64,000 nt of DNA from Nitrospirota bacterium (GCA_963737155.1 CAVTRN010000002.1:64001-128000), one strand, 5' to 3'. Shown: positions 19,030 to 57,137, numbered from the stretch's first letter. Notes: a model not told the origin generated them from the sequence alone. Numbers and translations are program-made.

Positions 19030-19158
19030 TTTCAGGAAGGAAAACTCGACCTATGTTTCAAGAAAAAACTGTTAATATTCATATTGAAAATCGGTATCGG
19101 ATTCACCTACAATCATGCAGTAGTGTTGACTAAATTTCAATGCATAATACTACATGGA
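19030..19158 (+). repeat. Boundary repeat copy C (core 19102-19158)
   Basis: CAGGAAGG at 19033; TTCACCTACAATCATGCAGTAGTGTTGACTAAATTTCAATGCATAATACTACATGGA. Confidence 0.85.
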
Positions 19159-19165
19159 AATTGTA

Positions 19166-19225
19166 AATGAACTGCTCGGCTGAGAGGGGCAGTTTTATCG
19201 ACCCTCTCAAACCGAACAGTTAGAA
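19166..19225 (-). repeat. attC-like hairpin (60 bp) downstream of the GNAT gene
   Basis: Minus: TTCTAAC-TGTTC-GGTTTGAG...CTCAGCC-GAGCA-GTTCATT; extra base in the 5' L arm. Confidence 0.5.
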
Positions 19226-19268
19226 TCGTCATCGGGTTTCACTCGTTCTCCCCGACCTGCCCGCTGAA

Positions 19269-19714
19269 TCATCTTAAACATAACTCCATATACTTTGTTG
19301 TTAGCCCTGGGCTAAACCGGGATGGTTCGATATGTTTGAACCCCAAACGTTTGTAGCGTCCTATGGCAGACTTTATGCGTCTAGAGTATCCGGCCTTTTT
19401 TTCATATCCCGAATTTCTTGCTTCTTGAATCAGTGCGATGCACAATTTTCGGCCTATATCCTTATTCTTGAATTGGTCATAGACATATAGACGCTTCATC
19501 TCACAAACAGTGGGATCAAGCATTCTCAGACCTACGCCACCCGCAAGCTCGTCTTCGTGCCATGCGAGAAACAAAAGACCGTTCGGAGGGTCATACATTG
19601 AAATATATGATAATTCCTTCTCGATACATACTGAAACGATAGATCAACGTTGAGCCGGCGAACGTAGTCTTTCACTAGCTTGCTTGGCAAGAAGAAAATC
19701 AGAATCTTTTTCAT
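19269..19714 (-). pseudogene. GNAT acetyltransferase, frameshifted
   Basis: YVRRLNVDLSFQ / YDPPNGLLFLAW...GVGLRMLDPTVCEMKRLYV split over frames. Confidence 0.75.
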
Positions 19715-19936
19715 AAGGTATTATTACACGCATTTTTTTAATCCATTAAAAAGCTGTCAGAAAAACAGGACTATAGCACAGGAGTAGCGAGTTATCAATA
19801 CGTGGACGAAAAGTAGTACTGACAAAATCGCAGACATTATCTCCAACTGAATCATACTTTTATCCCATTGACATTAACAAATATTTGCGCTTTCTTTAAA
19901 TTATAAGAAGTTTTATTTCAAATAGGGAGAATTGCT

Positions 19937-20488
19937 ATGGCAAAACAAGAAGGCAAAAGAGATTTTCAAGCGATCATGGAAATATACAGGAAAGTGGGTA
20001 CTCCGAGCGAGCCTCATAAACGGCTGGCGAAACTGGAGGGAAGTTGGATAACTAGGACCAGGGGCTGGATGGAGCCTGACAAGCCGTCGATAGACTCGAC
20101 CGGCACGTGCGATCAGAAGCTGGTCCTTGATGGGCATTACCTGCAGCAGGTCTATACGGGTGATATGATGGGACTCCCATTCTCCGGCATCAACCTCTTG
20201 GGATATAATAACCATACCGGGAAGTATGAGTCGGTTTGGCTCGATTCAATGAGCACGGCCATATACTATTTCGAGGGGACCGCAAGCGCGGATGGAAAGA
20301 CCATTACGCAGGAATGCAGATATGACGACCCGGTAAGGGGCCCTTCCGTCTGGCGCAGTGTGACCAGGATCAAAGACGACAATACCCTGGAGTTCGAGAT
20401 GTTCATTGCCCCTAAGAGAGGCAAGGAAGAAAAGATGATGGAAATGACGGTTTCACGAAAGGAAGCCGTCGCACGGAAGGCAGCATAA
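19937..20488 (+). CDS. DUF1579-like protein
   Basis: GTPSEPHKRLAKLEGSW, PFSGINLLGYNNHTGKYESVWLDSMST. Confidence 0.8.
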   Translation: MAKQEGKRDFQAIMEIYRKVGTPSEPHKRLAKLEGSWITRTRGWMEPDKPSIDSTGTCDQKLVLDGHYLQQVYTGDMMGLPFSGINLLGYNNHTGKYESVWLDSMSTAIYYFEGTASADGKTITQECRYDDPVRGPSVWRSVTRIKDDNTLEFEMFIAPKRGKEEKMMEMTVSRKEAVARKAA

Positions 20489-20502
20489 GTCTAGCTACTT
20501 TG

Positions 20503-20588
20503 GGGGACGTTATTTCTAATCTTCTTTGTTGCTTTCCATTATCAACACTGGGAGTTAACAGATAAGCAACGAGTGAAACAACGTCCCC
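20503..20588. repeat. Long imperfect inverted repeat (GGGGACGTT...AACGTCCCC)
   Basis: GGGGACGTTATTTC..GTTGCTT pairs with AAGCAAC..GAAACAACGTCCCC. Confidence 0.55.
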
Positions 20589-21147
20589 GGTGAATATAAG
20601 TTTCTAAAGTAACAATAATAAATCCTTGCGCCATGGGCAGAATGATTTTGTGATTGTGTGCTTATTATTCAACATACTTTTTCAAAAGTTTTCTTTCAGT
20701 CTCCTCATCGACTGGAGAACGCCGTCCTTTTCATATCATAACATTCATAATTCTCGAGGATGTCAGCAACCGAAAAAATTGGCATTTGAGGGTGGTATTC
20801 GATGAGGAATTCTGGATGAGGCAACGATAAGAACTTCAGGAAGTTGTTGTTGCCTTAAAACTATATCATAAAATGCGTGAAACACACTGTATTATGTGAT
20901 CATTAACAGAAGATACTGTCCTTGGTTATTCCTTTCATCCTGACACATCTATATAAATATTCTACCTGACTTTGGTGTCCACTTTATCCATCCTACCTCA
21001 GGGTCTGAGGGCTCTCCTTTTTGCAGTCCTCTACTTGTAAGTTTATTCCTTTCTTCTTCCACTAAACAAGAGCGATGCCTCGGGCCTGATAACCAGCATA
21101 CTCTACCGACCCTGGTGCAAACATTCGAGATGTCTTATCCTTGCTCA

Positions 21148-21699
21148 TTAGGCTTTTGTTGGCCCAGATCGTTGTTTTGTAGCCGATTTTCTCCGTAAGG
21201 CGCTAGTAGCTATTTTTGCAGGTTTGTTTACTTCCGGAGATAAAATCAGCCGGGGAGGCATGTGTTGCGCCCCCAAGAGGATCGCCATCTGGTTCAGTGC
21301 CTGCGAAATGCTTTTTAATCTATTGGAACTCAGTTTTTCAAGCCCTGCCACCAGGAGGCCTTGGGCCACTTCAGGTGCTTTCTTAACCAAGGACTTGCCC
21401 TGTCCTGTTAATTCCACTCTCACCACGCGTCGGTCTTCAGTTGAGCGTATCCGTATGACCAGTTCCTGTTTTTCAAGACGATCCAGAATGCCGACCACCG
21501 TGGCAGGGTGAAGGTACATGCGCCGCGCGATCTCTGAAACCATAATTGGCGCCTCCTGAGCGATTGTCTTAATCGCCCAGAGCTGGGGGCCTGTCAGGCC
21601 TGTCTCATGCTCGGCCTTTTTCGATTGTTCGTTGACAGCCTGAAATACTCTGCGCAGATTATCGATGATTTCCGCCACTGTTTCCGATCTCTTGCTCAT
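21148..21699 (-). CDS. MarR-family transcriptional regulator
   Basis: GLTGPQLWAI, LHPATVVGILDRLEKQELV, EDRRVVRVELT. Confidence 0.9.
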   Translation of the reverse strand: MSKRSETVAEIIDNLRRVFQAVNEQSKKAEHETGLTGPQLWAIKTIAQEAPIMVSEIARRMYLHPATVVGILDRLEKQELVIRIRSTEDRRVVRVELTGQGKSLVKKAPEVAQGLLVAGLEKLSSNRLKSISQALNQMAILLGAQHMPPRLILSPEVNKPAKIATSALRRKSATKQRSGPTKA

Positions 21700-21751
21700 G
21701 GAGTACTCCCCTCATAAATAGACTTGACAACGCCGTAACAACGTGGTAGTT

Positions 21752-21783
21752 GTTTGTATACAAACTATTGTAACACATACAAT
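21752..21783. promoter_or_regulatory. Palindromic operator(s) between divergent marR and pal
   Basis: Perfect GTTTGTATACAAAC plus ATTGTA-N5-TACAAT just downstream of TTGACA (21724). Confidence 0.6.
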
Positions 21784-22057
21784 ACGGAATGCAATTAAAA
21801 TGAATTACTCCCTTAAAACATATGGAGGGCCGGGGTTCAAAAAATAACGTCTTTCAATTAATATAAATAACCGTTAGAAAGGAGTATGGAAAGATTATGC
21901 CAGGTTGAAGACTATTCAAAGAAATTTAGCAGTGGATGCCCATGGATTTTTAATTATGCTTGTAGGCACAAAGACAGATCAACATTGAAAGGTGATTTAT
22001 AACTACGGCACTTGAACAGCAGAAAACGACACCAGTAATGCAAGGAGGAACAACGAT

Positions 22058-22609
22058 ATGAGTCGCAAAAGCTTGTTGTATCTAATATTTGTCTTATTAG
22101 TCGGTATGGTGACTTTGTGGGGTTGTCCGAAAAAAGCAGAAGTGACAACGACGCCTGAAGCACAACCACAGGCAGAAAAGGTGATGCCCCCGGCCACACC
22201 GGTTCCATCGACTGAAGCTGCACCAGCCGAAATGCAACCCGAAGCAGCGAATGAAAAGGCCGGAACGATGGCGGAAGGACTCAAGCCAATTTATTTTGAA
22301 TTCGACAAGTCATTTATCCGTGACGATGCACAGGCCATTATGAGGGCTAATGCTGAATGGCTTAAAGCGAACCCCAAGACAACAATTAAGATCGAAGGGA
22401 ATTGTGATGAACGGGGGACAAAAGAGTACAACCAGGCGCTTGGTCAACGTCGTGCAGAGAGTGCAAAAAAGTATCTGACCGAATTGGGCATTGCAGGGCA
22501 CCGCATCTCACTCCTCAGTTATGGTAAGGAAAAACCGGTCTGCAGCGAACATGATGAAACCTGCTTGCAGAAGAACCGGCGTGATGATTTCGTCGTTACC
22601 GGTAACTAA
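22058..22609 (+). CDS. pal: Peptidoglycan-associated lipoprotein (OmpA C-terminal domain)
   Basis: Lipobox LWGC; IYFEFDKS, IEGNCDERGTKEYNQALGQRRA, SYGKEKP, NRR. Confidence 0.9.
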   Translation: MSRKSLLYLIFVLLVGMVTLWGCPKKAEVTTTPEAQPQAEKVMPPATPVPSTEAAPAEMQPEAANEKAGTMAEGLKPIYFEFDKSFIRDDAQAIMRANAEWLKANPKTTIKIEGNCDERGTKEYNQALGQRRAESAKKYLTELGIAGHRISLLSYGKEKPVCSEHDETCLQKNRRDDFVVTGN

Positions 22610-22967
22610 GTATGCTGGAACCGGGAAGTGCATGTACCTACCCAGCTGGAGTTTCGATAGTCGAGTTGCCGCCGTCGGGAAAGTTGCTCGAGGGATGATC
22701 GGGAAATGGCAATGGGCATTTTTACCCCGGAATATGTCTTTCTCGCCGTCGTTCTGCTTGTTGTCGCATATCGCATGATGATAACGTCGAATACGTATGA
22801 AGAATCCGGCGAATCGTCGATGAATAACGACAAGAGAAAACGGCTTCATTGATGTCGATGTGCACGGTATTCTCCAGCAGGACATGCAAGGATTTAAAAA
22901 AAACTGTTGGCGGACAGAACCACATAGGTTGCCGTGCGAAATAACCAATTGAACAGAAGGTAACGTA

Positions 22968-23329
22968 ATGAGCAATTTGGACAAGCTTAAGTGGGCAGAA
23001 TTAAAGGCTGATTTGGAAAAGGGTTTAGGGAAAGAATCGTGGCTCTCAAGAAAGGCGCCATGGTCGTCAGAAAGAGAGCAGGCGAATTGACGGAAGAAGA
23101 AGATTACCAATATAAACTTTTCGCGCTGAAGGCAAAAGTGCACAATAGTATTTCCGACCTTGGTGCAAGGGTGTATACACTGGTGGCGACTCAAGGCGGA
23201 ATAAATCCTGCTCTCGATGCCACGGTAAGGGACATTATTGCGCAGGTTAAACGCTACGAAGCTGAGATCAGCATTCTCGAAAATAACCCACGAAAACCAT
23301 TAAAACGGAGAATCGAAAAAGCCGCGTGA
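22968..23329 (+). pseudogene. Hypothetical coiled-coil protein, start apparently frameshifted
   Basis: MSNLDKLKWAELKADLEKG (22968) out of frame with ALKKGAMVVRKRAGELTEE. Confidence 0.4.
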
Positions 23330-23452
23330 TTCCTACCGGCTGTCACAGATGCGCACTGATTCACTTTGAGGCGCCGGAGCTTTAGAGCACTTCGGCGTCC
23401 GTTTTTTATCATACCTTGCAAGTTAGCATAGCTAGGAAGGATGGCATATTGA

Positions 23453-25228
23453 GTGTTTGACTTTCTCAAAGCGAAATCTCTCCAGGCCTACCGCATGGCT
23501 GCGGGCCTTGGTACAGACGAGAACACGTTTCTTATTATTTCCTCAGTGATTGTAGGTGTTCTCGGGGGCGCTGCCAACATCCTGTTCCGCTCAACCTTGC
23601 AGTTCGTCCACAATGTCATTTTCGTGCACGGTTCTCAGCTGCTGGGTATCACCCGGGGCGGATGGTACCGCGCGCTGGTCCCTTTGCTGCCGATGACAGG
23701 AGCGCTTTTGCTGATACCGCTTTCCCTTCTTTTCCCGGGCGAGGTCAACGGATACGGCTTTGCCAAGTTTCTGGAAGTGGTAAACATCAAAGGTGGTTTC
23801 CTGAAATTCAGGAATATCATTCTCAAGACTGTTGGGCCGGCCTTGACGATTGGCTCGGGTGGATCGGCAGGCGTTGAGGGCCCGATCGCCATCATCGGCG
23901 GTACGGTGGGATCCGCGGTGGGACGCCTGTTCAAAACGTCGGGGAACCGCACCAAGCTCCTGATCGCGGCAGGTTCGGCCGCCGGGATCGCGGCAACCTT
24001 CAATGCTCCGATCGCGGGCGTCATGTTTTCCACCGAGATCGTGCTGCTGGGCGATTACGAGATCGCGTCATTTGCCGCCATCGTGATCGCCTCGGGGATC
24101 GCCACGGTCGTTTCCCGCGGTTATTATGGGGCCACCCCCGCCTTCATTGTGCCGCAGTACGAACTGGTGAGTATCTTCGAACTTCCCCTTTACCTTGTGC
24201 TCGGCCTGGTCATCGGTTTTACATCCGTTTTCTATGTCCGCACATTCTACCGCTTGAAAGACGAGTTCGAAACCTTAAAAATGCATCCCCAGATGAGGCC
24301 CGTGCTGGGTGCCCTTCTGGTGGGATGTCTAGGCATATTCCTGCCGGAGATCATGGGCAACGGTTACGAGTTCATCGAAAAAGCGCTGCATGAAAACATG
24401 CTCTTCCCGATTCTCATTTGTCTTGTTTTTTTCAAAGTCGTGGCCACATCGATCACACTCGGGTCCGGCGGAGCGGGCGGTGTTTTTGCGCCGGCGCTTT
24501 TCATCGGAGCAATGACGGGCGGTAGTTTCGGGTACGTGGTGCATAGGTTGTTTCCTCATTTAACGGCGACGCCCGGTGCCTATGCGACCGTCGGCATCGG
24601 CTCATTCCTCGCCGCAGCAACTCACGCGCCGCTCACCGGCATTTTTCTCCTGTTCGAAATGACGGGGAACTACAAGATTATCGTGCCGCTCATGTTCAGC
24701 TCCATCATAGGGACCCTGATCGCAAAGCGGCTGTATCATGACTCCATTGACACAGCAGAGCTCACCAGGAAAGGCATCAAGCTCCATGCCGGCAAAGAAC
24801 AATCCATCATGGGTCGCATAAAGGTCGGTGATGTTTTGGTCACCGACGTCGTGACCGTCACCCCCGAGACGCCCCTCCATCGGCTGATCGAAATCATGAT
24901 AGAAAAGGAGCGATTCTATATCCCTGTTGTCGATTTCGCCGGGGAAATGGCGGGAATCGTGTCCATTCACGATGTCCGTCCCGTCCTTCTAGAGGAACGG
25001 GTGACTCATATTGTGAATGCCGGAGACATCGCGACGGTAAAAGTAATCGTGCTTGCGCCTGAGGACGATCTAAACACGGCCATGGAGAAGTTTTCCAAGA
25101 AGGACATTGAGGAAATCCCCGTAGTGGAACGGAAGGGCTCGAAAAAAATCATAGGCATGGTGAAGCGTAAAGACATAATCGGCGTTTATAACAGGGAAGT
25201 CCTGAAAAGGGAGAGCGGACTGGAGTAG
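23453..25228 (+). CDS. ClC chloride channel/antiporter with CBS pair
   Basis: GSGGSAGVEGP, AATFNAPIAG, GGVFAPALFIG, C-terminal CBS domains. Confidence 0.92.
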   Translation: MFDFLKAKSLQAYRMAAGLGTDENTFLIISSVIVGVLGGAANILFRSTLQFVHNVIFVHGSQLLGITRGGWYRALVPLLPMTGALLLIPLSLLFPGEVNGYGFAKFLEVVNIKGGFLKFRNIILKTVGPALTIGSGGSAGVEGPIAIIGGTVGSAVGRLFKTSGNRTKLLIAAGSAAGIAATFNAPIAGVMFSTEIVLLGDYEIASFAAIVIASGIATVVSRGYYGATPAFIVPQYELVSIFELPLYLVLGLVIGFTSVFYVRTFYRLKDEFETLKMHPQMRPVLGALLVGCLGIFLPEIMGNGYEFIEKALHENMLFPILICLVFFKVVATSITLGSGGAGGVFAPALFIGAMTGGSFGYVVHRLFPHLTATPGAYATVGIGSFLAAATHAPLTGIFLLFEMTGNYKIIVPLMFSSIIGTLIAKRLYHDSIDTAELTRKGIKLHAGKEQSIMGRIKVGDVLVTDVVTVTPETPLHRLIEIMIEKERFYIPVVDFAGEMAGIVSIHDVRPVLLEERVTHIVNAGDIATVKVIVLAPEDDLNTAMEKFSKKDIEEIPVVERKGSKKIIGMVKRKDIIGVYNREVLKRESGLE

Positions 25229-25325
25229 CTGGCTGACGTCCCTATAATCCGTTCGCAAAGGGTAACAGGTGTTCCTATACGCGACAGCGTGAGTCTGCGT
25301 AAAGCGATAAGTTAGTTCTCACTGC

Positions 25326-25895
25326 TCAATGGAGTCTGCCACCTCCGTCAACGTCCAAGATGGCTCCAGTAGTAAATCCGTTGGAGAGCAGGTAAAGCGC
25401 GGCTTGTGTGAGCTCGTCCGGTTTACCCGCCCGACCCACAGGAAGGTTGCCGCTCATCTGCTTGAAGAAGGCCTTCTTCTCTTCACCTGATATCCAGTTG
25501 TAAGCCGGCGTGTCCACCAAACCAGGCGAGAGAATATTCACACGAATTGGAGCAAGCTCCTTTGCCAAAGTCATGGCCATACACATGATCGCTCCATTTA
25601 CAGACGCAACACCTGCCGTTCCTGGAATTGCCGAGCGGGCAGCTCCGCCGATCGTGAAGAGGATTTACCCTCCCTAGCGGATGAGCGGAGCACCATATTT
25701 GGCATACAGAAAACATCCCCAGAACTTCGTCTTAAATGCGCTCTCGAGGGCGGGCGATTGAATTTCAGACCGCTTGCCCCATGCGGGTAGTCCCGCACCC
25801 ATCAGCATGAGGTGGTCGAAAGCACCAAGCGTGCTGAAAAACTCCCGCACCGCATCTTCTTTTGAGAAATCCAGAGTCCGGCATAGCTCCTTCTC
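25326..25895 (-). pseudogene. Short-chain dehydrogenase, 5'-truncated and frameshifted
   Basis: FDHLML, TKFWG, LAKELAPIRVNILSPGLVDTP, FTTGAILDVDGG over several frames. Confidence 0.8.
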
Positions 25896-25976
25896 CTCTA
25901 CATAATACAATCAAGAATTTTCACAAGTACAGATTTCCGAATTACAATCGTTCCACCGATGATGAAGGAGCCATGT

Positions 25977-27860: not shown

Positions 27861-28182
27861 GGGCCTCTTTCACTGGATATATATGAGTATATCAGGAACC
27901 ATTTATGAAGGACAAAGCTTCTTATTCATAAGCGTGAATTACTCCACTCCAACGCGCAGTTCATTTTGGCGCAGTTTGAAAATGCTAAGCAGCGAGGATA
28001 TTTGATATAGAGCGAGGTCAATCATGTTGATTAGGCATTTTCGGGTAGCACTATCGGATGGACAGTGACATGATGATGAACTAGGGCGATACGATGATGA
28101 AGAGTGGCCAGATGATGATGGATGAAGGCAAGAAGTTGAGCAAGGGCAAAAATACAACTTGTAAATTACACGGTTGCGATAA

Positions 28183-28300
28183 ATGGAAACTCGTCTACAG
28201 GAAGCACATCATATTTTATTATGTGATTGAATCAGTGCATACTCCAATCTGAATTATTGCCCAAGATGCAATGCTAACTGTACCATGGTATCGAATCCAC
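28183..28300 (+). repeat. Arm-only half copy of the boundary repeat
   Basis: ATGGAAAC..CAGGAAG at 28183-28204, then GGTATCGAATCCAC (cf. GGTATCGGATTCAC of copy C); similarity ends after CAC. Confidence 0.55.
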
Positions 28301-30326: not shown

Positions 30327-31175
30327 ATGAACACAGTGAACACAATTGGTTTGATGGTTTTTATGACACTCCTTCTTATCTTTGTGTGGGCAGCCATTGG
30401 AGGAAAGAGTGGGGGGTGATGGCATTCGCCCTTGCCACGATCATGAACGCCGGCTCCTACTGGTTTAGCGATAAGATCGTGCTCAGGATATACAATGCGC
30501 AGCCGGTGACTGAGTCCCAGGCCCCTGAGCTTTATAGTATGGTGCGAACGCTGGTTCAGAAAGCTGAAATGCCCAGCCAAAAGTTTATATTATCCCCGAT
30601 GAGACACCGAATGCCTTTGCTACAGGTCGGAACCCCGAGCATGCGGTTGTTGCTGTTACGCAGGGAATCATGAGGATTCTCTCCCGGGACGAGTTGGCCG
30701 GCGTTATTGCTCATGAACTGGCCCACATCAAACACCGGGATGTGCTGACAGGCATGATTGTTGCGACCATTACTGGTTCCATCAGCATGCTGTCACAGAT
30801 GGCCCAGTGGGCAATGATCTTCGGCGGAGGCTGCCACAGAGACGACGAGGGCAGCAGCCCTGTCGCTGCTCTGGTTATGATGGTCGTTGCACCAATCGCG
30901 GCTATGATGGTGCAGATGCCATCTCACGGACACGCGAGTTCGAGGCGAACAAGGGAGGTGCACAAATATCCGGAAATCCTTCCGGCCTTGCCAATGCACT
31001 ATTGAAGTTGGAGAAAAGATCACAATTGATCCCTATGCATGATTCACAACCGGCAACGGTGCAGATGTTCATTGTGAATCCATTAACAGGCGAGAGTCTG
31101 TTGAAGCTCTTCAGCACCCACCCGCCTATCTCGGAAAGAGTCCGGCGTTTGAACGAAATAGCACGAGTAAGATAG
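30327..31175 (+). pseudogene. htpX: Zinc metalloprotease HtpX with several frameshifts
   Basis: [27 protein letters not shown] (HExxH), ISRTREF, LFSTHPP in different frames. Confidence 0.85.
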
Positions 31176-33906: not shown

Positions 33907-34897
<991 letters not shown>

Positions 34898-38613: not shown

Positions 38614-38749
38614 TGCACAGCTCCTCACGATGCGGCTTAACTTATGATGCCGTCTGCCCTGGCTCATGACTTGCAGATTCTAGAGTGAAATAAGCGCTAA
38701 ATGTTTCGACTAATAATTCTTACTACCACAATATCTGGCGTTCATCGTC

Positions 38750-38806
38750 TTCACCTACAATCATGTATCAGCATTGACAATATTTCAATGAAGGATACTG
38801 GCTGAA
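38750..38806 (+). repeat. Boundary repeat copy D core
   Basis: TTCACCTACAATCATGTATCAGCATTGACAATATTTCAATGAAGGATACTGGCTGAA. Confidence 0.85.
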
Positions 38807-38937
38807 AAATACATAAGTAAAAGAATTGGCCGTAGTAATTATTTATCTAGGGTTTGTTGAGCACTTTGGGCTGCGGCGTCAGCGTATCGGGAAACAGCCC
38901 GAGGATGTCCAAAGAGAACAACGGGTCGTCTCTGCGC

Positions 38938-39684: not shown

Positions 39685-40063
39685 ACACCCTCCGTAATAA
39701 AAGTCACCGAATGAACTAAAGATCCATCTTGCGGGCTGAATGCTCTTCCTATGTTCGCTTTTTCCAGCCTCCTAACTGAACGTCAAAATTTTCTCTAGAT
39801 ATACCGTTAACCATCATTGTGATCAATCCTTGTGAACATGAGAGAACGGCAAAAACATCGTTCTGAGAGGGTCGAGTTCCACCGTTAAAAGTGTGAAGTC
39901 CGCCATTTAGAATAATACTTGTCGTATTTAGAACGACTATATGCCTGATATAAAGAGATGTCAACTATATGGGTGTGCGATCCCCGCGAAGGGGTATTTT
40001 CGGGGTGGCCGCTAAGAGTTTCCCGTAATTCTTCATCTATTCTATAGAACATGAAGTGCTAGA

Positions 40064-40119
40064 TACACCTATAGCTTGCACCGGCGTTGACTAAAAATAA
40101 ATGCAGATTACCACATGTA
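40064..40119 (+). repeat. Boundary repeat copy E core
   Basis: TACACCTATAGCTTGCACCGGCGTTGACTAAAAATAAATGCAGATTACCACATGTA. Confidence 0.75.
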
Positions 40120-40411
40120 ACTTACACCATAGCAAGATCGACGAAACTGCTCGATCTTCACCGTGGGATGACGAGATAATCGGTGTGGATCATCCCGTCC
40201 AACGACTCCGGCGCAGAAGAAAACAACCTGTACTCATGCGGTTTTCTGAACAGTAAAAAATAGCATAATAAAAGTGATAACAAGACTCCAAATTGAAAGT
40301 ATTTTTAGGGTATTCGGATTTTGCGGTTGATTTTGTCTAAAGCTCGCCCTGTTCTTCGGGTTTAGTAGCTATCCAAAATGTCAGGCGCTCCTTTGATTGT
40401 TTATGAAATTA

Positions 40412-41864: not shown

Positions 41865-42072
41865 AAGTTAATGATAGCACGGGGGTCTATAACGGGCAAG
41901 GGAAAGGCAAAGGGGTTGATGTGACCCTTGCATATTCCAATGGGATTGAACACTCATTCTGATCGTGTTCTGACGGCAATTCCGATCTACTTCGGACATT
42001 CAATACGAATTGCGGTAGTACATACTTCAATCCGAATATTTGCATAGTTCCGCAGTGGTTTAAAAGCTTGGC

Positions 42073-42130
42073 TTCACCTACAATCATTGAATGTCAACAT
42101 TGTGACAAGGGTGAAGATTGTCAGATTGTA
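42073..42130 (+). repeat. Boundary repeat copy F core (subtype with central TGTCA-N6-TGACA)
   Basis: TTCACCTACAATCATTGAATGTCAACATTGTGACAAGGGTGAAGATTG; near-identical to copy H over ~50 bp. Confidence 0.85.
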
Positions 42131-42224
42131 ACTCACATTAGCAAGGGGACTTAACTTGTAACTTTTACGGCTTTCAGCATACTTCCAAAACGCGGATAAT
42201 ACTGCAAAGGCAAATATCGTCTGT

Positions 42225-42806
42225 CTACTGAACAGTAAAGGTTGCAGATTTCATAAGATTGCCTTTGTCGTCCAAGACATAAACCCTCCACTCGCCCTTC
42301 ATACCGTTGATCTTCTTGCTGACCCATGTCCGGAACCTCGGATAAGGCTTGATGGCAAGAGGTATTTTGTCCATCTCGTTTTGGCCGAGCATCCACACTA
42401 CGTAAACGGTGGTTTCCGTTTTTACATATTTAAACTCAAGATAGCAATACACCTTCTCCTGATTAGCTGGATACATCGTTCCTATGTCTAGCGGTGTCCG
42501 ATCCATCACGCCAGCGCCGATTTCCATCCGCAAAATTGTGAGGTTCCGAGCAGGAGCCGGGGCATGGGCGGTCCCTGTAGTCGTCCTGATCGGCACTACC
42601 GTCGACCGCGGAGCAGGAGCCGGGGCATGGGCAGTCCCTGTAGTCGTCGTGATCGGCACTACCGTCGACCGCAGAGCAGAAGCCGGGGCACTGGCAGTCC
42701 CTGTAGTCGTCGTGGTCGGCACTACCGTCGCACGACGTACTGGTGAGACCGTTACACATGCTGAAAAAAGCATTAGAACAATGCCAAGGACTATGGGTTT
42801 TCCCAT
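42225..42806 (-). CDS. DUF2914-like lipoprotein with a T/P/A-rich repeat linker
   Basis: Lipobox FSAC; KVYCY...W...RTWVSK...GEWRVYVLD. Confidence 0.75.
   Translation of the reverse strand: MGKPIVLGIVLMLFSACVTVSPVRRATVVPTTTTTGTASAPASALRSTVVPITTTTGTAHAPAPAPRSTVVPIRTTTGTAHAPAPARNLTILRMEIGAGVMDRTPLDIGTMYPANQEKVYCYLEFKYVKTETTVYVVWMLGQNEMDKIPLAIKPYPRFRTWVSKKINGMKGEWRVYVLDDKGNLMKSATFTVQ
42545..42731. repeat. Three tandem ~63-bp repeats (21-aa STVVPITTTTGTAHAPAPAPR)
   Basis: GTCCCTGTAGTCGTC...GGCACTACCGTCG recurs with a 63-bp period. Confidence 0.9.
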
Positions 42807-47197: not shown

Positions 47198-47743
47198 AAG
47201 GCCTCCGGAAATGTTGGCTTTAAGTCGAAAAGACAAAAAATAACTATGTAGAACATTAACACAGTGAATGAGGGATGTAAACAGTATTTGGGGGTCGGGC
47301 AATAGCTATTGATGGATGTAATTGCGTGTTATTCAAGATGTATTCTACAATTTCAAAGAGATGCAATCGTCGCGGATTTCAGGAAGATTTTTTGCCGGAA
47401 GGACCGTATCATAACATCCATAATCCAAACGGAATGTTTCACCATCCTCTTAACAGGCCTTGCGGCTTACATCTACAAGCATGCACTGCCAATATCTTGA
47501 CGATGCAAAGAATACTAAGTAGTATCTTGCATTGAAAGGGTGTGAAAATGTTACAGCGTTTTAAAATGCTAAAGGCGAATTATTTCTTGTCGAGAATTGT
47601 ATCTTTTGTGGGCAGCCGGCGCGGAGTCTTGCGGCACAAATAACTCACTCCGTAATAGCATAATATAAAGAGCTGATTTCCACCTTTTTCATCTCCAACT
47701 ACCCGCGTTCGACATGGCCAAGTGTACCATGCCTCTAAGTCAT

Positions 47744-49147: not shown

Positions 49148-49259
49148 GAATTTTAAAACCCGCCGGCATTGCTATAATGTGCGCCTACGTATCAAATATA
49201 CTCTATTAATTATGAGTTGCAACTTGCAGCAGGGCAAGAGAATGTTCAAGTGAAGATTT

Positions 49260-49350
49260 GAGGAAGGTTTATTAACCGAATGATTCAACCGATATCTTCC
49301 AAATTCTTATAAGTCACCGTTCCTACTGTGTACACCTACATGATTACAAG
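49260..49350 (+). repeat. Partial boundary repeat copy G (arm plus left half of core)
   Basis: GAGGAAGG ~70 bp before TACACCTACATGATTACA (49331); right half not recognisable. Confidence 0.5.
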
Positions 49351-49388
49351 AACACAATCGGAACAAGACACTATTCTAACAATGGTCT

Positions 49389-50357: not shown

Positions 50358-50606
50358 TTTCGTCTCCCTTGCTCGCCGGGCTCCATTTCGGCTGGCTTCA
50401 CAACTGTCTGAGCGATGCGCGACCACGTCAGCCTGAAATCACGATGCACTCAATCTTATGCTAAATTATAGCACTCTCGTAGAAGTGATGCCGGGAGGAA
50501 AAGTCACACCCAGCATCACTGAGCATGGAGTGCTGATATTATCAGATACCGACTGGATATTTTTGGGGTTATCGAATTCAGGTTGTAACTTTATATGTGT
50601 AGAAAA

Positions 50607-50771
50607 ATGGAAACTTCACCTGGTAGGAAGGAGTTGCTGACAGAGAACTTTATCACAAAATGCAATGATATAAAATGAATTCTGCACCTTCGACAATATT
50701 ATATGAAACTTGGCTTCACCTACTATCATTGAATGTCAATATTGTGACAATGGTGAAGAATGCGGGTTGAA
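50607..50771 (+). repeat. Boundary repeat copy H (core 50715-50771, 3 bp from the kinase stop codon)
   Basis: ATGGAAAC..TAGGAAGG arm; TTCACCTACTATCATTGAATGTCAATATTGTGACAATGGTGAAGAATGCGGGTTGAA. Confidence 0.85.
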
Positions 50772-50774
50772 ATA

Positions 50775-53700
50775 TTAATTGCTAAGCGTCTTATTTAAGA
50801 CTTCTGTGAGAGCGTTAACATCATAGGGTTTCTTCAAAAACGCCCTAAATCCCTGCGTAATATAATTCGCAGTTGCCGCATCATCGGAGTATCCGCTCGA
50901 TACGATAGCTTTAACTTGAGGATCCATTTTGAGTAACTGCTGGATCGTTTCTAGCCCACCCATGCCTTCCCGAATTGTGAGGTCGAGGATAACGATGTCA
51001 AAGTGGCTCCCGGCATCCATCGCATTTTTATATTTTCCCAATGCTTCTTCGCCGCGATTTGCAACGTCAACGTCATGTCCCAGCAAGACAAGCAGTTCTC
51101 TGTTCAGATTCCTGATTACTTCTTCATCGTCCATAACGAGGATCTTTGCTTTTCTCGATTGGGTAGGCTCGTGTTGTTTTTCCGCGGATCCCGTCCGGAC
51201 CTCTCCTGCGATCGCAGGAAGATATATTGTGATCGTCGTTCCGATACCTGGTTTCGTCTTAACATCAATCATGCCGCCGTGATTTCTGACAATTGAGTAG
51301 GAAGTTGCCAACCCCAGCCCGCTTCCTTTCTCTTTGGTCGTGAAATAGGGGTCGAAGATTTTATTCAGATACTGTTCTGGAATACCAACGCCGGTGTCAC
51401 GGATAGCTATCATGACATAGTCAGCCTGTGTAAGCCCGAGGGGGAGCGATGCATCGCCCTTTGCTATGTTCGCAGCCGTGACCTTGACTGTGCCGCCGAC
51501 TGGCATGGCTTGATCCGCATTCAGCACGATGTTCTGGATTACCTGCCCCAACTGACCTCCATCCGCCTCTGCCTGCCACAGGTCTTCCGGGAGGTTCATA
51601 CGGAGACCGGAGCGGGAGCCGCTTAACGTAAACTTTGCGGAGTTTTCAATGATTGGTCGGAGATCGACCTGTTTCTTGACTGGTGTGCCACCCTTGGAGA
51701 AGGTCAGAAGCTGGGTCGTGAGATTAACCGACTGATGAAGTGCTTGCTCGGCTTGTTCCAAGGCTGCTGTGCTTTTCACCGGATTCTTTGCAGTCATCTT
51801 TGCCAGAGAAATGTAGCCGAATACTCCTTGAAGCAAATTGTTAAAGTCATGGGCAATGCCGCCGGCCAGTGTGCCGATAGACTCGAGTTTTTGCGTTTTG
51901 AGTCGTTCTTCCTCGAGCAGATATCTCTCTGTGATGTTATTGATCGTCTCGATGACAGATATTACGGCACCAGACGAATCTTTAATAGGGAACGCTCTAG
52001 TCTCTACGAAGAGGATATTGCCATTGGAGTCTTTGTGGCGGTGAACTGTCGAATAAGGCGTGCCCGTTTCGAAAGCTTGGTGTGGCGCGCAATCTTCACC
52101 TTCTTCATAACAAGGCCGGTTAGAGCGGTGAGATACCTTGTAACAGTGCTGTCCGATAATTTCTCCATCACTGCCGCCAACTTGTTTGCAGTATGTCTTG
52201 TTTGCAGTCTGGATGCGGTAGTCCTGGTCTACGACGATGAATCCCTCATCCACAGTATCGAGGATGCTCCTGATGAACTTTTCGCTCTGCAGGATTTTCT
52301 CCTCAGCCTGTTTGCGTTCAGTGATGTCTTGACAGGTTCCGCTTAAAATAGTTTGCGTACCAGTATCGTCGTGAATAAGTTCTCCTTGAGAATGGAGAAT
52401 CCTGGTTGTGCCATCCCTTAAAATAAATCGATAGTCAATAATGAATGGCTTGCGCAGCACCGCCTCCTCAATGGCTTTTTTAAGTGCACTCCGGTCAACC
52501 GGGTGGATCATATTGAGGAACATGGTGAAGTTCGCAGTGTCTTTCTTTGGATCAAGCCCGAACAACCGGAACAGCTCATCAGACCAGATCACCTGACCAT
52601 TCGTCTGATTGTGCTGCCAGCTCCCGATATGCGCAATTCGTTGTGACTCGGCAAGCTGTTTTTCCCGTTCCTTCAGCGCTTCCTCCATCCGTTTGCTTTC
52701 GGAGATGTCTGTGTGCATGCCGACAAGGCCAACAACGTTGTCTTCTTTATTCTTAATAGAATATGCACGGAGATAAATATCCCTTTCTGTTTTATCTTTA
52801 TCTAACATTTTTACTTCGCCTGCAAAAGAACCACCCTTCATGATTATGTCAAATACTTTTCGTCCAACTTTTTCATCAGCGTATACAGTTGCAGGCGGTC
52901 CTGAAACACCATCGACTTCCCTAATAGATAATCCGAACAATTTAGTATAAGCCTCATTTTGATAATAATGCCTTCCAGCAGGTGTAGCCATACCAATTGC
53001 ATCTGTTGCGCTATCCACTGCCATCTGAAAATAAAGAAGCGCTTCCTCAGCCCTCTTGCGATCGGTGATGTCGCGCATTAAACAAAAAAACATTGGCTGT
53101 TTATCAAGCAAATAATTAACACTCGCTTCAATATTAATAACTTTCCCATCTTTGCGTCTATGCTTTGTCTCGAAGCGGGCATAACCAGTCCCTATGATTT
53201 GTTGGAGTCGCTTTTCAATTACTTCTTGCGTATCCAGTACTTCAACATCTTTTACACTCATCTTAAGCAGTTCCTCATTGCTATAACCTATCATCGAGCT
53301 ATAAGAATCATTAGTTTCTAAAATTTGACCTTCCATATCGACAAGATAAAAGCCATCCATCGCCATGCGAAGAATTGTCTTAATGCGTTCTTCCGCTCGC
53401 TTGCGCTCGGTGATATCGCGAATAACGCTGCAGCAGTATTTGATACCTTCAATCTCAATTAATTTAACCTGTGCCTCCGTTAAGAAAACCGAAACATCTT
53501 TTCGCATATGAGTTGATTCAAAACGCAGTTCCCCCGTTCTTAGCAACTCACTTATTCTTTGAGAGAAAAACTTGTTCTGCTCTGAAATTATAATTTTCGA
53601 CAACTTCATCCCAATCATTTCTTCTCTCAGGTAGCCTCGGGATTCATAAGCTGACTTGTTGGCGAAGACTATATTGCCATCTAGGTCGTGGATGAGGATC

Positions 53701-53786
53701 GAATCAGCGGACAAGTCTAAAATAAAAGATTGTTGTTGCAAAGAGTCTAATGTTAAGGTTGCTGGCAGCATGGAAAATGTCCTCAA
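50775..53786 (-). CDS. Multi-PAS hybrid histidine kinase with receiver domain
   Basis: Repeated DITERK PAC motifs; AGGIAHDFNNLL; DPYFTTK; ILVMDDE...VILDLT...SSGYS...KKPY. Confidence 0.92.
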   Translation of the reverse strand: MRTFSMLPATLTLDSLQQQSFILDLSADSILIHDLDGNIVFANKSAYESRGYLREEMIGMKLSKIIISEQNKFFSQRISELLRTGELRFESTHMRKDVSVFLTEAQVKLIEIEGIKYCCSVIRDITERKRAEERIKTILRMAMDGFYLVDMEGQILETNDSYSSMIGYSNEELLKMSVKDVEVLDTQEVIEKRLQQIIGTGYARFETKHRRKDGKVINIEASVNYLLDKQPMFFCLMRDITDRKRAEEALLYFQMAVDSATDAIGMATPAGRHYYQNEAYTKLFGLSIREVDGVSGPPATVYADEKVGRKVFDIIMKGGSFAGEVKMLDKDKTERDIYLRAYSIKNKEDNVVGLVGMHTDISESKRMEEALKEREKQLAESQRIAHIGSWQHNQTNGQVIWSDELFRLFGLDPKKDTANFTMFLNMIHPVDRSALKKAIEEAVLRKPFIIDYRFILRDGTTRILHSQGELIHDDTGTQTILSGTCQDITERKQAEEKILQSEKFIRSILDTVDEGFIVVDQDYRIQTANKTYCKQVGGSDGEIIGQHCYKVSHRSNRPCYEEGEDCAPHQAFETGTPYSTVHRHKDSNGNILFVETRAFPIKDSSGAVISVIETINNITERYLLEEERLKTQKLESIGTLAGGIAHDFNNLLQGVFGYISLAKMTAKNPVKSTAALEQAEQALHQSVNLTTQLLTFSKGGTPVKKQVDLRPIIENSAKFTLSGSRSGLRMNLPEDLWQAEADGGQLGQVIQNIVLNADQAMPVGGTVKVTAANIAKGDASLPLGLTQADYVMIAIRDTGVGIPEQYLNKIFDPYFTTKEKGSGLGLATSYSIVRNHGGMIDVKTKPGIGTTITIYLPAIAGEVRTGSAEKQHEPTQSRKAKILVMDDEEVIRNLNRELLVLLGHDVDVANRGEEALGKYKNAMDAGSHFDIVILDLTIREGMGGLETIQQLLKMDPQVKAIVSSGYSDDAATANYITQGFRAFLKKPYDVNALTEVLNKTLSN

Positions 53787-54061
53787 ACAGTCAAAAAAAT
53801 CGAGTATAAGAATAGCGTCATATTATTGAAAATGTATCGGAAAGTAACATATTTCATAGGCTTGCTATCTGTATTTCGAGTTGTATTCTGTCATTTCCAA
53901 TAGATGATACGTATGCCTCCTTAATAAGCATTGCTATTAAACTTATCGTCACAATCTTGATTAACTTAAGTGAGCAATATGATTTGTTAAGGGAATTTTA
54001 AGGGTAAGTTAACGAACACGGCCTGATAATGGAAGTTGCTAAGAATAGAAGCAGCACAGAT

Positions 54062-54186
54062 AAAGGAAGGGGGGGCATTGTATGCTTCAATGTCAATTGC
54101 GCACCTCTACTAATATTATACGAAATTCGACTTCACCTACAATTTTGTACTGGTGTTGACGTTCTATATGCATTTTTGCTGAATCT
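54062..54186 (+). repeat. Boundary repeat copy I (core from 54132)
   Basis: AAGGAAGG arm; TTCACCTACAATTTTGTACTGGTGTTGACGTTCTATATGCA. Confidence 0.8.
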
Positions 54187-54561
54187 TTTGATATCGCATT
54201 CATGATTTTCATGCATTATTGAGGTTTAATGAATGCTCTACCATCTATTGATTTGCTTGAAAGCTTAGCTACTCTATTGAATCTATCATTGTTTCTAAAA
54301 GCTCTAAGAAAATACTCATACACCCAATCATCCTTGATGAATGCCCTAATTAGCGTCCCTCTTGATATTTCGCATGTATCCCATCCTGTTGTATATTCTT
54401 GTTCTCATATATGCACTACAGGGCAAATAGTCGTAAATAACATATTTATAAAATATTAATTCTTTTGCGATTCTTATTTGCAGCATCTTTATGCCAATCG
54501 TACTAATATTCTAAGTATGGAGAGCACATTCTAAGCCAACAAAAAAGCAAGGAGGAGTTAC

Positions 54562-54879
54562 ATGAAACTGGTAAAAGCCATAATTAGACCGTTAAGTTGG
54601 GAAAAGGTAAACACTGCCCTTCAAGAAATGGGAATCGATGATATGTGGGTTGATGAAAGAACGGTTGGCCAAGTTGTAAGTAACGGCTTCAAGAAAGGGG
54701 AAGCATTGCTTTACCGTGGGGCAGAATATGTAGTAGACTTTATGACAAAAACGGAGGTTGAGATCATCGTTGCGGATGGTTTTGTGGACAAAGTTGTCGA
54801 TACAATCCGCAAGATTGCTGGTACGAGTAGGAAGGAAGATTGCCGAATATGTATTCTGCCACTCATTGAAGCAATTTAG
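54562..54879 (+). CDS. P-II-like nitrogen regulatory protein (divergent)
   Basis: MKLVKAIIRP, YRGAEYVVDF, VEIIV, IRKIA; short C-terminus. Confidence 0.8.
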   Translation: MKLVKAIIRPLSWEKVNTALQEMGIDDMWVDERTVGQVVSNGFKKGEALLYRGAEYVVDFMTKTEVEIIVADGFVDKVVDTIRKIAGTSRKEDCRICILPLIEAI

Positions 54880-55083
54880 GCCTACACTTTTTCAACCACA
54901 GAGTCGGTAGAAAGGCGCTGGTACCGGCAGTTATCCTAAAATGTGACCCGTTAGAATCTGTGGACGTTTTCCGGTCCGTCAAATTACCAAGTGAATGAGA
55001 TCATGCCTTTTGCTTTTTTTATGTTTCGCGAAAACTCTAGGCTTTTCTCGTAACGAGTTTCGACTTAAAACATCGTAAGGAGA

Positions 55084-55350
55084 TTGAAATGTAAAAAGAT
55101 GGGTTCTATTCTAGGTTTGAAGATTGGCTTGATGATATACTGCGCCATGGTGGCACTGGCAGCGCCAGTATTCGGAGACGCTGCGAAGCCGGCAGCACCA
55201 GTAGTGGGCGCCGATAACATCAAGAAAGCACTCGGTATCAGCTTCTATGTTCAGGGCGGCTATACGTACAATGGGAGCGCCAGCAACGGCGCCACCCGGG
55301 ACTCGGTAAACTAGTTGCGGGTGTTCGACCACGATGCTAACAACTTCAGG
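55084..55350 (+). pseudogene. Outer-membrane porin N-terminal fragment
   Basis: Signal peptide, GISFYVQGGYTYN, premature TAG then LRVFDHDANNF; breaks off at a boundary-repeat arm. Confidence 0.55.
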
Positions 55351-55449
55351 TTCATACTTCTTGCGTTGCAAAGAATGGCACACAATTGACACAGGAAGCT
55401 CTTTTTACCTGAAAAACCATATCATAATATCCATGATTCAAACAGAAGA

Positions 55450-56973
55450 CAGGTTATACTGTTTTTAGTTGAAATTGAAAAGAGTGGCTCCCCCGTGGCA
55501 TAATCCACGGTAGAGAGAGAAAAAAGAAAGGAGCCACTCAATGAAGGATACCACAAGGAAGAGAAAAAAGGCAATACGAGGAATTGAAGAGGCATACGGA
55601 AGGCGGGAGATCATCGAACAGATGTATTGTGTCTTCGCAAAAGGGAAACAGGGTTTTGATGAATGCATGAAGGAAATGGGCAGAATGATGGCAGAGACGA
55701 TCATGTACATCGAGCGGGAGGAGATTGCCGGCCCCGACTACCAGCCTAACAGTCCCGATCTGCGGAAGTGGGCTAGCCAGGGCGGTTCCGTCTATATCGG
55801 AGATCAGAAGATCCCGGTGACCCACCCTCGGCTTCGAGGTCCGGCGGGTGAGATTGTACTGCAGAGCTATCAGAAGATGAAAAAACCGGAAGTCTTCGCA
55901 GAAGAATTGCTTGGAAAGGTGCTTCGGGGCATATCATGCCGGAAGTATGCGGAGACAGTTGTAGATACGGCACGAGCATTTGGAGTGTCCGCCAGCACGG
56001 TATCGAGCCATATCGTCGCGGCAACAGCAAAACAGCTTCAGGAGTTTAAGGAACGGTCACTCACGTCATTCGTTCCCTTTTCGGTCTTTTTAGACACTGT
56101 TCACCGCGGCGGAGAGGCATTCATCGTGGCGCTGGGGCTTGATATTGCCGGAAAGAAGCAGACATTGGGGTTCTGGCAGGGGGCGACGGAGAACCATGAA
56201 CTGTGTGAAGAGCTGTTTTCTGATATAGAGCGGCGGGGTCTGATACTTTCACGACGAATCATCTGGGTTACCGATGGCGGCAAGGGCGTAATCAAGGCAC
56301 TCCGGGATCGCTTCGGTAAGAAACTCATCCATCAGCGGTGCACGATCCACAAGGACCGGAATATACAGCATCATTTGCCGAAGAAATACCGGAAAGGCGC
56401 ACACTGGAGGTTCCGGACAGCCCTGGAGCAGAATAATTACGCGGACGCTCGTCAGATGCTTCTGGACATGGAGAAATGGCTTCGGGGCATTAATGAGTCG
56501 GCGGCTGATTCGCTCATGGAAGCGATAGAAGACATTCTCACCCTTCATCGATTGAAGGTCCCCGCTCTCTTGAGGAAGACGTTGCATTCTACCAATCCTA
56601 TCGAGAGCATGTTTTCCACGGTGAGAAAAGCAGAAGGCAATATAAAGCGCTACCGCGACAGCAAGATGATGCAGCGCTGGCTCGCTTCTGTCCTCTTATA
56701 TGCTGAACAAGGATTCAGAAAGATCAAGGGCCACGCCTTCATCGCGAACGTGATGAAACGGATCGAAACGGAAGAATTAAATGACCTAACAGTCAAAGAG
56801 GCTGCGTAAAGGGGGATGGTTAGGTATGGCTCGGCCTCAGAAAACTCACATATGGCGATCCTACGAATCCGATTTTATAAACAGCGATGATTTACACCGT
56901 TGAACCGATAAAAATACTTTAGCCGAAGGGAACGGGCCACTCAGATAATTTCAACTAAAAGCTTGACCTCGTC
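55450..56973 (+). mobile_element. IS256-family insertion sequence, copy 2 (1524 bp)
   Basis: Same ends as copy 1; DR AACAGAAGA at 55441-55449 and 56974-56982. Confidence 0.95.
55541..56809 (+). CDS. IS256-family DDE transposase
   Basis: 422 aa; 3 visible amino-acid differences from copy 1. Confidence 0.95.
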   Translation: MKDTTRKRKKAIRGIEEAYGRREIIEQMYCVFAKGKQGFDECMKEMGRMMAETIMYIEREEIAGPDYQPNSPDLRKWASQGGSVYIGDQKIPVTHPRLRGPAGEIVLQSYQKMKKPEVFAEELLGKVLRGISCRKYAETVVDTARAFGVSASTVSSHIVAATAKQLQEFKERSLTSFVPFSVFLDTVHRGGEAFIVALGLDIAGKKQTLGFWQGATENHELCEELFSDIERRGLILSRRIIWVTDGGKGVIKALRDRFGKKLIHQRCTIHKDRNIQHHLPKKYRKGAHWRFRTALEQNNYADARQMLLDMEKWLRGINESAADSLMEAIEDILTLHRLKVPALLRKTLHSTNPIESMFSTVRKAEGNIKRYRDSKMMQRWLASVLLYAEQGFRKIKGHAFIANVMKRIETEELNDLTVKEAA

Positions 56974-57015
56974 AACAGAAGATTTTACTTCCCCAATAAT
57001 TCTTAACCTCCCACC

Positions 57016-57072
57016 TCCACCTACTAGCTTGTAGTCCTGTTGACATAAAATCTATCCAGACTACTGGTTGAT
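57016..57072 (+). repeat. Boundary repeat copy J core (arm split by IS256: 55375-55449 and 56983-57015)
   Basis: TCCACCTACTAGCTTGTAGTCCTGTTGACATAAAATCTATCCAGACTACTGGTTGAT. Confidence 0.85.
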
Positions 57073-57079
57073 AATTGCA

Positions 57080-57137
57080 CATCAACGAACGGGTTCAGCA
57101 GCTGGCGTAGACAGTTGCCTGAAACGATGGGTTCGTC
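57080..57137 (-). repeat. Integron attC-like site (58 bp) downstream of the GyrI-like gene
   Basis: Minus: GACGAAC-CCATC-GTTTCAGG-CAACTG-loop-CAGCT-GCTGAAC-CCGTTC-GTTGATG; 5/6-bp unpaired spacers and two extrahelical bases. Confidence 0.65.

Follow-up and report, generated by a model that had tools for sequence, protein, structure and literature searches.

IS1111-attC elements dock at a fixed position in the attC sites of integron cassettes. Group IIC-attC introns also do so and give an outward promoter to the next cassette (PMC3001079). Classical attI sites are specific double-stranded DNA where cassettes accumulate through a G|TT join, and they have promoter activity. The integron integrase (IntI, gene intI) can in addition insert cassettes at double-stranded genomic sites called attG, which combine a GWT core with a motif that must be present on the right side of the cut (Loot et al., bioRxiv 10.1101/2022.09.11.507474). 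In this work we analyzed a 64,000-nt stretch of a Nitrospirota bacterium genome (hereafter the window; GCA_963737155.1, CAVTRN010000002.1:64001-128000) in which a ~220-bp non-coding repeat (hereafter the element) begins at the crossover triplet of an attC site, a junction that recurs elsewhere in this genome and in two sister genomes. The source genome (G000) is 100% complete at 4.84 Mb in two contigs, C1 and C2, and the window is its C2:64001-128000; relatives carry other G numbers. A first-pass annotation of the window had reported two attC hairpins, hairpin 1 behind a GNAT gene (locus 1) and hairpin 2 behind a GyrI-like gene (locus 2), each 14 bp from the "core end" of a repeat, and had linked this repeat to integron machinery.

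The attC sites were searched with a covariance model (R1) trained on 13 attC sites from intI-adjacent arrays in G014, G031, and G026. The intI-adjacent DNA of these three relatives consists of regular arrays of small open reading frames (ORFs) separated by 50-55-nt AAC...GTT hairpins on the expected cassette strand. On the intI-linked arrays of five relatives R1 gave 49 matches on the expected strand at 29-75 bits, most of them outside the training set (16 in G005 and 11 in G002, neither used for training). R1 was run on the whole window with filters off (128 kb searched), and hairpin 1 matched the model over its full length, its 24.8 bits lying at the low end compared with true array sites. 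Folding was computed as single-stranded DNA on both strands against 200 shuffles. The hairpin 1 region (19164-19229) gave -14.4 kcal/mol on the minus strand and -15.4 kcal/mol on the plus strand (z = -4.4 and -5.5), and 0 of the 200 shuffles reached its folding energy. The terminal boxes of attC sites follow the consensus RYYYAAC / GTTRRRY. In hairpin 1, with its GTT at 19172-19170, the 5' AAC pairs with the 3' GTT both in the minimum-free-energy fold and in the R1 alignment; the 3' 7-mer, GTTCATT, is off this consensus at the fourth base. The stem comprises 10 bp and a further 8 bp with an asymmetric internal loop between them, in which 2 nt of the 5' arm face 1 nt of the 3' arm, and the extra unpaired bases are on the same arm as the invariant extra bases of reference attC sites. 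Hairpin 1 is 77-83% identical to attC sites within the intI-linked arrays of G031 and G005, and this homology breaks off at 19170, the last T of GTT.

The GNAT ORF is cassette-sized, lies on the same strand as hairpin 1 with its stop 44 nt ahead of it, and has a promoter-like site at 19798-19770 (TTGATA-17-TATAGT, 10/12 matches). Gene and attC form one block that is also present in G011 at 82% identity (window 19816-19157). A scan for terminators, taken as a GC-rich stem with a T run after it, gave 0 sites in 18600-19900, so that the alternative role as terminators allowed for in the first-pass annotation received no support at locus 1, where the scan was made. We concluded that hairpin 1 is an integron attC, weak and probably decaying. 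Together with the GNAT gene it is a single attC without integrase (SALIN type), which is an already-known kind of arrangement. A CALIN is a set of at least two attC sites close together without intI; the two main R1 matches of the window are 17.8 kb apart on opposite strands, and hairpin 1 is therefore not part of one. The other of these two matches (1358-1416, Table 1) has the element's six starting letters after its core, but these lead into a small-ORF region and not into the element.

The element begins at the TT of the attC crossover triplet GTT. When attC sites of G000 with the element behind them were aligned to R1, the model GUU fell, in 5 of 5 cases, on (G/C)UU with CAU directly next, that is, on the triplet just before the CAT letters of the element. 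The junction core is GTT, a G-W-T core, in most attC-element junctions, with CTT and GTC found once each. A natural comparison is offered by two paralogous cassettes of G001, L061 and L064, whose genes share 82% identity and whose attC sites share 86%: the likeness is lost at the last T of GTT, where L061 continues into the element and L064 into unrelated sequence. R1 gave 17 matches in G000, one of which (C1:503507, a perfect 35-nt palindrome) was dropped as a probable false positive. By reading the sequences, 9 of the remaining 16 are followed by the element. For counting across genomes we used as a proxy the most conserved 7-mer of the element (GTAGGTG block, 1 mismatch allowed) at 40-100 nt past the attC match, which overlooks truncated element copies. 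The proxy was positive for 7/16 attC sites in G000, 15/20 in G001 and G011 together, and 1/49 in the intI-linked arrays, compared with 211/5000 (4%) random genome positions; attC-element adjacency thus occurs at ~10-18 times the random rate. In most positives the block is at +50 to +56 from the attC model end, and one G000 positive at +98 is probably due to chance. A strict hairpin filter (AAC..GTT, dG <= -10) passed 5 of 78 element copies vs. 0 of 1500 random positions; it overlooks known decayed sites and was not taken as the main count. The cassettes upstream of the junctions are unrelated genes and their attC subtypes are diverse, and we therefore concluded that the junction was formed repeatedly and not inherited once. 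Runs of 2-4 attC sites ending at an element were found at C2:1683099-1687727 in G000, where five R1 matches cluster at C2:1683099-1692007, and at C1:105056/104386 in G001.

These results change the meaning of the 14-bp offset. The arithmetic was right (19158 to 19172 and 57072 to 57086), but the 14 bp are no spacer between separate sites; they are internal sequence of the repeat. The "core end" is an arbitrary point inside the element, and "linker" plus "core" (19102-19158) make up its first ~70 nt. The linkers are similar and the offsets equal because both loci hold a copy of one element. The offset is thus trivial, whereas the association of the element with attC sites is strong and recurrent, and in its general form the first-pass observation held far beyond chance. 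The proposed link to integron machinery stands on hairpin 1 and on the counts in G000 and the two sister genomes; it gains nothing from hairpin 2 or from an intI gene, as described below.

The element was defined by a profile of 22 aligned copies and an nhmmer search of G000 at E <= 0.01, which gave 118 matches, 78 of them with an intact 5' end. The consensus (~217 nt in gene orientation) runs from the TTCAT... start to just past a GTTAAC-like motif, after which the number of aligned copies drops from 44 to 15. Copies sit before genes or operons, in their orientation. The window has 13 matches representing 12 copies (one is split), every one of them minus-strand and lying between ORFs of that strand, and 73 of the 118 matches are co-oriented in two regions, 45 on C2:1-600 kb (minus) and 28 on C1:1-240 kb (plus). 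Pairwise identity is low (median 48%, maximum 78%; 40 near-full-length copies, 780 pairs). The element is therefore not a recently active MITE-like repeat (MITE, miniature inverted-repeat transposable element) but an old family with conserved blocks at fixed spacing. In many copies a TTG-type hexamer in the most conserved block precedes a TATAAT-like hexamer by ~16-17 nt in gene orientation, and these hexamers appear promoter-like. The element matched no Rfam family at the gathering score or at E <= 1, and RNAalifold on 23-60 copies (whole element and three sub-regions, both strands) gave essentially no consensus fold. We concluded that it is a functionally constrained double-stranded DNA element rather than a folded RNA or DNA site.

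Several other identities were considered for the element and rejected. A known or structured RNA is not consistent with the Rfam and folding results, and a group IIC-attC intron is refuted by the same two results and the lack of an ORF. For a MITE the copy identity is too low; terminal inverted repeats were checked only by eye in the alignments. An IS1111-attC or IS110-family element does not fit a ~220-bp sequence between ORFs with 48% median identity among copies, and IS110 transposase genes occur only as separate insertions. The first module does not behave as a second attC-like hairpin (mean z -0.69; 15/76 copies below -1.5), and the element is not an ORF-less cassette with an attC at its 3' end, where folding gave no consistent hairpin and R1 no match. 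Two IS110-type genes do touch element copies: at C2:218790-219100 an IS110-family transposase gene lies inside a copy and element similarity stops at a fixed internal point, and at C2:1687773-1687990 a frameshifted IS110-type transposase fragment adjoins a truncated element beside an attC. Insertion sequences (ISs) of the IS110 type may use the element as a target. A rearrangement scar at C2:2985200-2985700 reads attC, truncated element, and then, joined to it without regard to frame, the C-terminal part of a phage-type integrase gene by a tRNA gene. This tyrosine recombinase fragment (C2:2985341) was rejected as the partner enzyme, being the remnant of a tRNA-side island integrase fused to the truncated element.

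At locus 2 the inverted repeat behaves differently from hairpin 1. R1, the lineage model and the only one used, scored it as given in Table 1 (141 nt, filters off). The region 57078-57141 folds at -7.8 and -10.6 kcal/mol, values equaled or bettered by 81 and 28 of the 200 shuffles, respectively. No AAC..GTT hairpin was found there by the filter that retrieves the array attC sites of the relatives, and the sole base-paired AAC/GTT is 4 nt farther from the core than the G named in the first-pass annotation. None of the 40 other family genomes searched contains a DNA homologue of the GyrI-like locus; what matched of the query, in G001, was limited to the element. From the R1 score, the failed filter and the lack of a homologue we concluded that hairpin 2 is not supported as an attC and that the element at locus 2 simply follows a gene. 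Of the two hairpins proposed, hairpin 1 therefore passes both the covariance and the folding tests and hairpin 2, with its shuffle-like fold, fails both. Pfam confirmed the GNAT and GyrI-like families. An IS with a Mutator/IS256-family transposase interrupts element copy 2; a second copy of this IS at 8094-9617 is 99.7% identical over 1524 bp, and G001 has at least 9 copies at 92-93% identity. The repeat is neither an end of this IS, whose transposase has 422 aa, nor a guide RNA of it, since the duplicate stops at 56973, short of the repeat. Table 1 lists the features discussed.

Table 1. Positions of attC-type sites, element copies and associated genes in the window (counted from its first nucleotide).
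Feature	Position	Strand	Evidence and remarks
attC-type site, second in window	1358..1416	+	R1 23.4 bits, E 1.6e-4; TTCATA after core
Element copy, best in window	4920..5183	-	141.2 bits
Element copy (partial)	11691..11837	-	40.0 bits
Element copy 1	18949..19171	-	nhmmer 72.2 bits, E 5.5e-20; opens with TT of attC GTT, boundary 19171
attC site (hairpin 1), probably decayed	19166..19225	-	R1 24.8 bits, E 5.6e-5, full model 1-59; closes GNAT cassette
GNAT acetyltransferase ORF, cassette gene	19269..19598	-	Pfam PF00583 (Acetyltransf_1), E 4.4e-11
Element copy	38671..38823	-	64.5 bits
Element copy (partial)	40024..40128	-	31.9 bits
Element copy, variant first module	41997..42145	-	45.3 bits
Element copy (degenerate)	47358..47541	-	42.8 bits
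Element copy, variant first module	50558..50792	-	126.4 bits
Element copy	53961..54188	-	82.6 bits
Element copy 2, distal part past IS	55323..55448	-	nhmmer model positions 122-240, 36.8 bits
IS, Mutator/IS256-family transposase, within element copy 2	55450..56973	+	Pfam PF00872; 9-bp target duplication
Element copy 2, proximal part, cut by IS	56974..57085	-	nhmmer 76.6 bits; similarity to other copies ends at IS end
Weak imperfect inverted repeat (hairpin 2), unsupported as attC	57080..57137	-	R1 1.5 bits; fold z -0.14, -1.15
GyrI-like ORF	57164..57535	-	Pfam PF06445, E 6.6e-16; upstream of element copy 2
Element copy	61300..61540	-	71.6 bits

Next, we examined where the element and the integrase occur among the relatives. 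The IntI profile (NCBIfam TIGR02249, cut-off 265 bits) was run over 61 genomes, G000 and 60 relatives. G000 has no intI by this profile: its best match reaches 88.7 bits in a Xer-like 325-aa frame. An intI over the cut-off was found in 18 of the 61 genomes, five of them in the same genus; the named sequences closest to the same-genus IntI come from metagenome-assembled genomes (MAGs) labelled Desulfobacteraceae and delta proteobacterium. Eleven near-identical ~295-aa ORFs in G001 (e.g., C1:620010-620537) align with the IntI profile over its N-terminal half (~108 bits); one more is found in G011 and none in G000, and they look like a multi-copy tyrosine-recombinase element. The element was counted across the genus with one representative copy as the BLAST query. 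G000, G001, G011, G010, and G003 gave 13, 10, 11, 1, and 1 matches, respectively, and have no IntI over the cut-off. G009 gave 3 matches and has IntI, G002, G005, G006, and G014 gave 0 matches each and have IntI, and five further MAGs gave 0 matches each and lack it. The element-rich genomes are thus without IntI, and with this one-copy query four of the five same-genus IntI-bearing genomes had no element match. No element copy was found in the ~110 kb of intI-adjacent arrays of G014, G009, G031, G026, G005, and G002, and a 130-nt part of the element had no match in genomes of 18 other genera of the family. Judged from these searches the element appears to be genus-restricted. The attC sites of G000 score ~21-51 bits vs. 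~45-75 bits for most of those in IntI-bearing arrays.

The regions around the element are extensively rearranged. The whole window has only scattered counterparts in G001, the closest relative searched, each elsewhere in that genome. When the window and a further two regions of 20 kb were compared with G001, G011, and G002 in search of filled/empty pairs, the regions proved too mosaic for clean pairs. At locus 1 homology to G001 (95%) begins inside element copy 1, at 19039. Short contigs from four metagenome runs have loose ends inside the same copy (19104 and 19113) and at 17488/17489, and none of them was an informative bridge across the attC-element junction. From the breaks at 19039 and 19113 we concluded that recombination inside elements also shuffles these regions. 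Farther along, a weak attC-like site (17380-17428, plus strand, R1 9.4 bits) lies in a 110-bp piece (17320-17429) that is inverted in G001 relative to the adjoining block 17489-19039, and the opposite-strand joint 17400/17489 is also present in one metagenome contig.

To our knowledge no enzyme other than IntI cuts at this position of attC, and recombination between an attC and the element by IntI is the simplest account of the junctions. We infer that IntI made them and that the cassette moved to the element, not the reverse. The reading that we favor, with a probability of about 40%, is that IntI-type recombination prefers the 5' end of the element as its genomic partner site. An integron integrase, ancestral or supplied in trans, would recombine the attC of a free cassette with the 5' edge of the element, which would serve as a double-stranded partner of the attG/attI kind with its key sequence to the right of the cut. 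Cassettes, short runs included, would accumulate on the 5' side of element copies, and hairpin 1 would be the decaying attC of a stranded cassette, made up of the GNAT gene and a promoter belonging to it, left in a genome whose integrase is gone. The first-pass annotation had put forward two mechanisms, a built-in IntI target or insertion at attC crossover points. The two are not decisively separable; the absence of the element from true arrays and its old, divergent copies lean to the built-in target, and together with the runs of 2-4 cassettes ending at an element they favor docking over invasion of attC sites.

Among the described systems, the element would act most like a partner site of the attG/attI type, but one that is dispersed, conserved, and located downstream of the cassettes. 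As in the attG insertions (SALIN/CALIN; Loot et al., bioRxiv 10.1101/2022.09.11.507474), an attC cassette is found outside any integron, the genome has no intI, the join falls on the G|TT (GWT) core, and the cassette, here that of hairpin 1, has its own promoter. The partner in that work is a double-stranded site with an important right side. There it is scattered and weakly defined, whereas here the edge of one conserved ~220-bp element takes this part again and again. A further difference is that G000 has no integrase now. Classical attI resembles the element in the properties given above, if the promoter-like hexamers are counted, but an attI is found once and upstream of the cassettes, whereas the element has >100 dispersed copies, none beside intI, and its conserved DNA is downstream (distal) of the cassettes. 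No motif common to the element and the intI-proximal regions of five relatives was found; a shared 8-mer, present twice in G014 and not in G031, G026, G005, or G002, was taken as chance. Like group IIC-attC introns and IS1111-attC elements, the element is docked at a fixed attC position; unlike them it is devoid of reverse transcriptase, ribozyme, and transposase, searches of intI-linked arrays did not find it, and the sequences of its copies differ strongly. Matus-Garcia et al. ("Promoter propagation in prokaryotes") reportedly described putative mobile promoters as homologous upstream regions before unrelated co-oriented genes. The element is such a region, but its boundary is precise and coincides with the integron crossover, and we know of no link to attC in the mobile-promoter literature. 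A keyword search of open-access text found no published account of attC sites with a conserved repeat fused to them.

Several observations weigh against a role of the element as an IntI partner site. There is no integron integrase in the complete G000 genome, nor one over the cut-off in G001 or G011, and the proposal must therefore assume a past or trans-supplied enzyme. The geometry mirrors that of classical attI, with the conserved DNA downstream of the cassettes, and some units read element, genes, attC. Most element copies have no recognizable cassette: R1 places an attC at 9/78 and the strict filter passes only the 5/78 given above. Among the attC-less copies nothing is conserved left of where the element starts, and the G ahead of TT is often missing, so that the proposed site would be defined by its right half only. 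At locus 1 the G000/G001 homology break and the metagenome contig break at 19113 are internal to the element and not at its edge. The anticorrelation of element and IntI is a hint only, because repeats may have been lost in the assembly of fragmented MAGs and because G000, G001, and G011 may be one subclade, in which case a single event could account for it. Finally, R1 is lineage-specific, with rough E-values, and is not a general attC model.

Three other explanations were weighed. The element, alone or with the genes behind it, could be a mobile partner that inserts at the attC crossover and broke up an ancestral chromosomal array. The exact junction at GTT, the element at 15 of the 20 attC matches in G001 and G011, and the long co-oriented flexible regions that the element-rich regions form would all be expected, as would the end of many copies near a second GTT-type motif, where coverage drops; group IIC-attC introns are a precedent for an attC-docked element with an outward promoter (PMC3001079). 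We nevertheless consider such insertion unlikely. The element is ~220 bp long with no ORF, no mobilizing enzyme was identified, its 48% median identity is unlike that of an active targeted element, and its 3' part lacks an attC-like hairpin fold. At least 50 copies have no attC, and none was found at the 49 attC sites of the intI-linked arrays, though known attC-targeting elements occur in arrays. It is a still weaker proposition that the element is the conserved 5' leader of a cassette family (TT-element-gene(s)-attC-G), most units of which lost their attC after the loss of IntI. The element does open with TT just after a G, as cassettes do, the lower attC scores of G000 fit decay, and several units have the element, 1.3-3.6 kb of genes, and an attC in the same orientation (e.g., C2:1514169 to attC 1516556, and C2:137055 to attC 134596). 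Elements are so dense here, however, that one within 4 kb upstream is expected anyway, and in all of the intI-linked arrays examined the cassettes begin with short 5' regions that lack the element. In addition, the homology break at 19039 is not at the element start, and modules such as 3-4 kb histidine kinases are far beyond cassette size.

The least probable explanation, and a very improbable one, is that no recombination links the two, the hairpins being terminators, the element a promoter or spacer, and their adjacency a matter of operon boundaries or common descent. It would agree with the promoter-like hexamers in many copies and with the position of the element, always between co-oriented ORFs, and for hairpin 2, which is nothing special, it stands. 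For hairpin 1 it is largely refuted: the terminator scan was negative, hairpin 1 matches true-array attC sites in sequence and structure, the same cassette is found with and without the element, and the base-exact junction recurs with unrelated cassettes far above the random rate.

The window contains further features outside the loci described above. A c-di-GMP-I-GGC riboswitch was found at 10131-10211 (minus strand, 70.5 bits); ~110 nt around it occur in at least 7 places in G001 at 76-95% identity, and the leader is multi-copy in the genus. Gene fragments or broken genes lie at 12947-13817, 14485-15936, 30670-31172, and 33922-34752. Among them, a GRDB-like piece is separated from a 100-aa ORF upstream of it, a selenocysteine TGA being the possible cause; AsmA is represented by an N-terminal fragment, an M48 peptidase is spread over two frames, and a chaperonin-60 ORF spans only the first 206 of 490 profile positions. 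Three tandem 63-bp repeats (42548-42736; 84-95% identity) are found within a DUF2914 ORF (42225-42806).

R1 also retrieves the cassette arrays of this poorly known group of bacteria. The genomic sites of escaped cassettes have been described as weakly defined and scattered, and here a single conserved element is the base-exact partner for about half to three quarters of the attC sites that lie outside integrons, in three genomes. If an integrase prefers the element, the latter would be a natural, sequence-defined secondary attachment site, which would show how cassettes can be stored up and expressed at a distance from the integron platform and would explain part of the extreme mosaicism of these genomes. 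More doubtful is the broader idea of the element as a dispersed, promoter-bearing landing pad in a "distributed integron" with >100 attI-like docking sites and an integrase acting in trans or intermittently. If that idea is true, flexible regions of several hundred kb would have been built from co-oriented modules parted by such pads.

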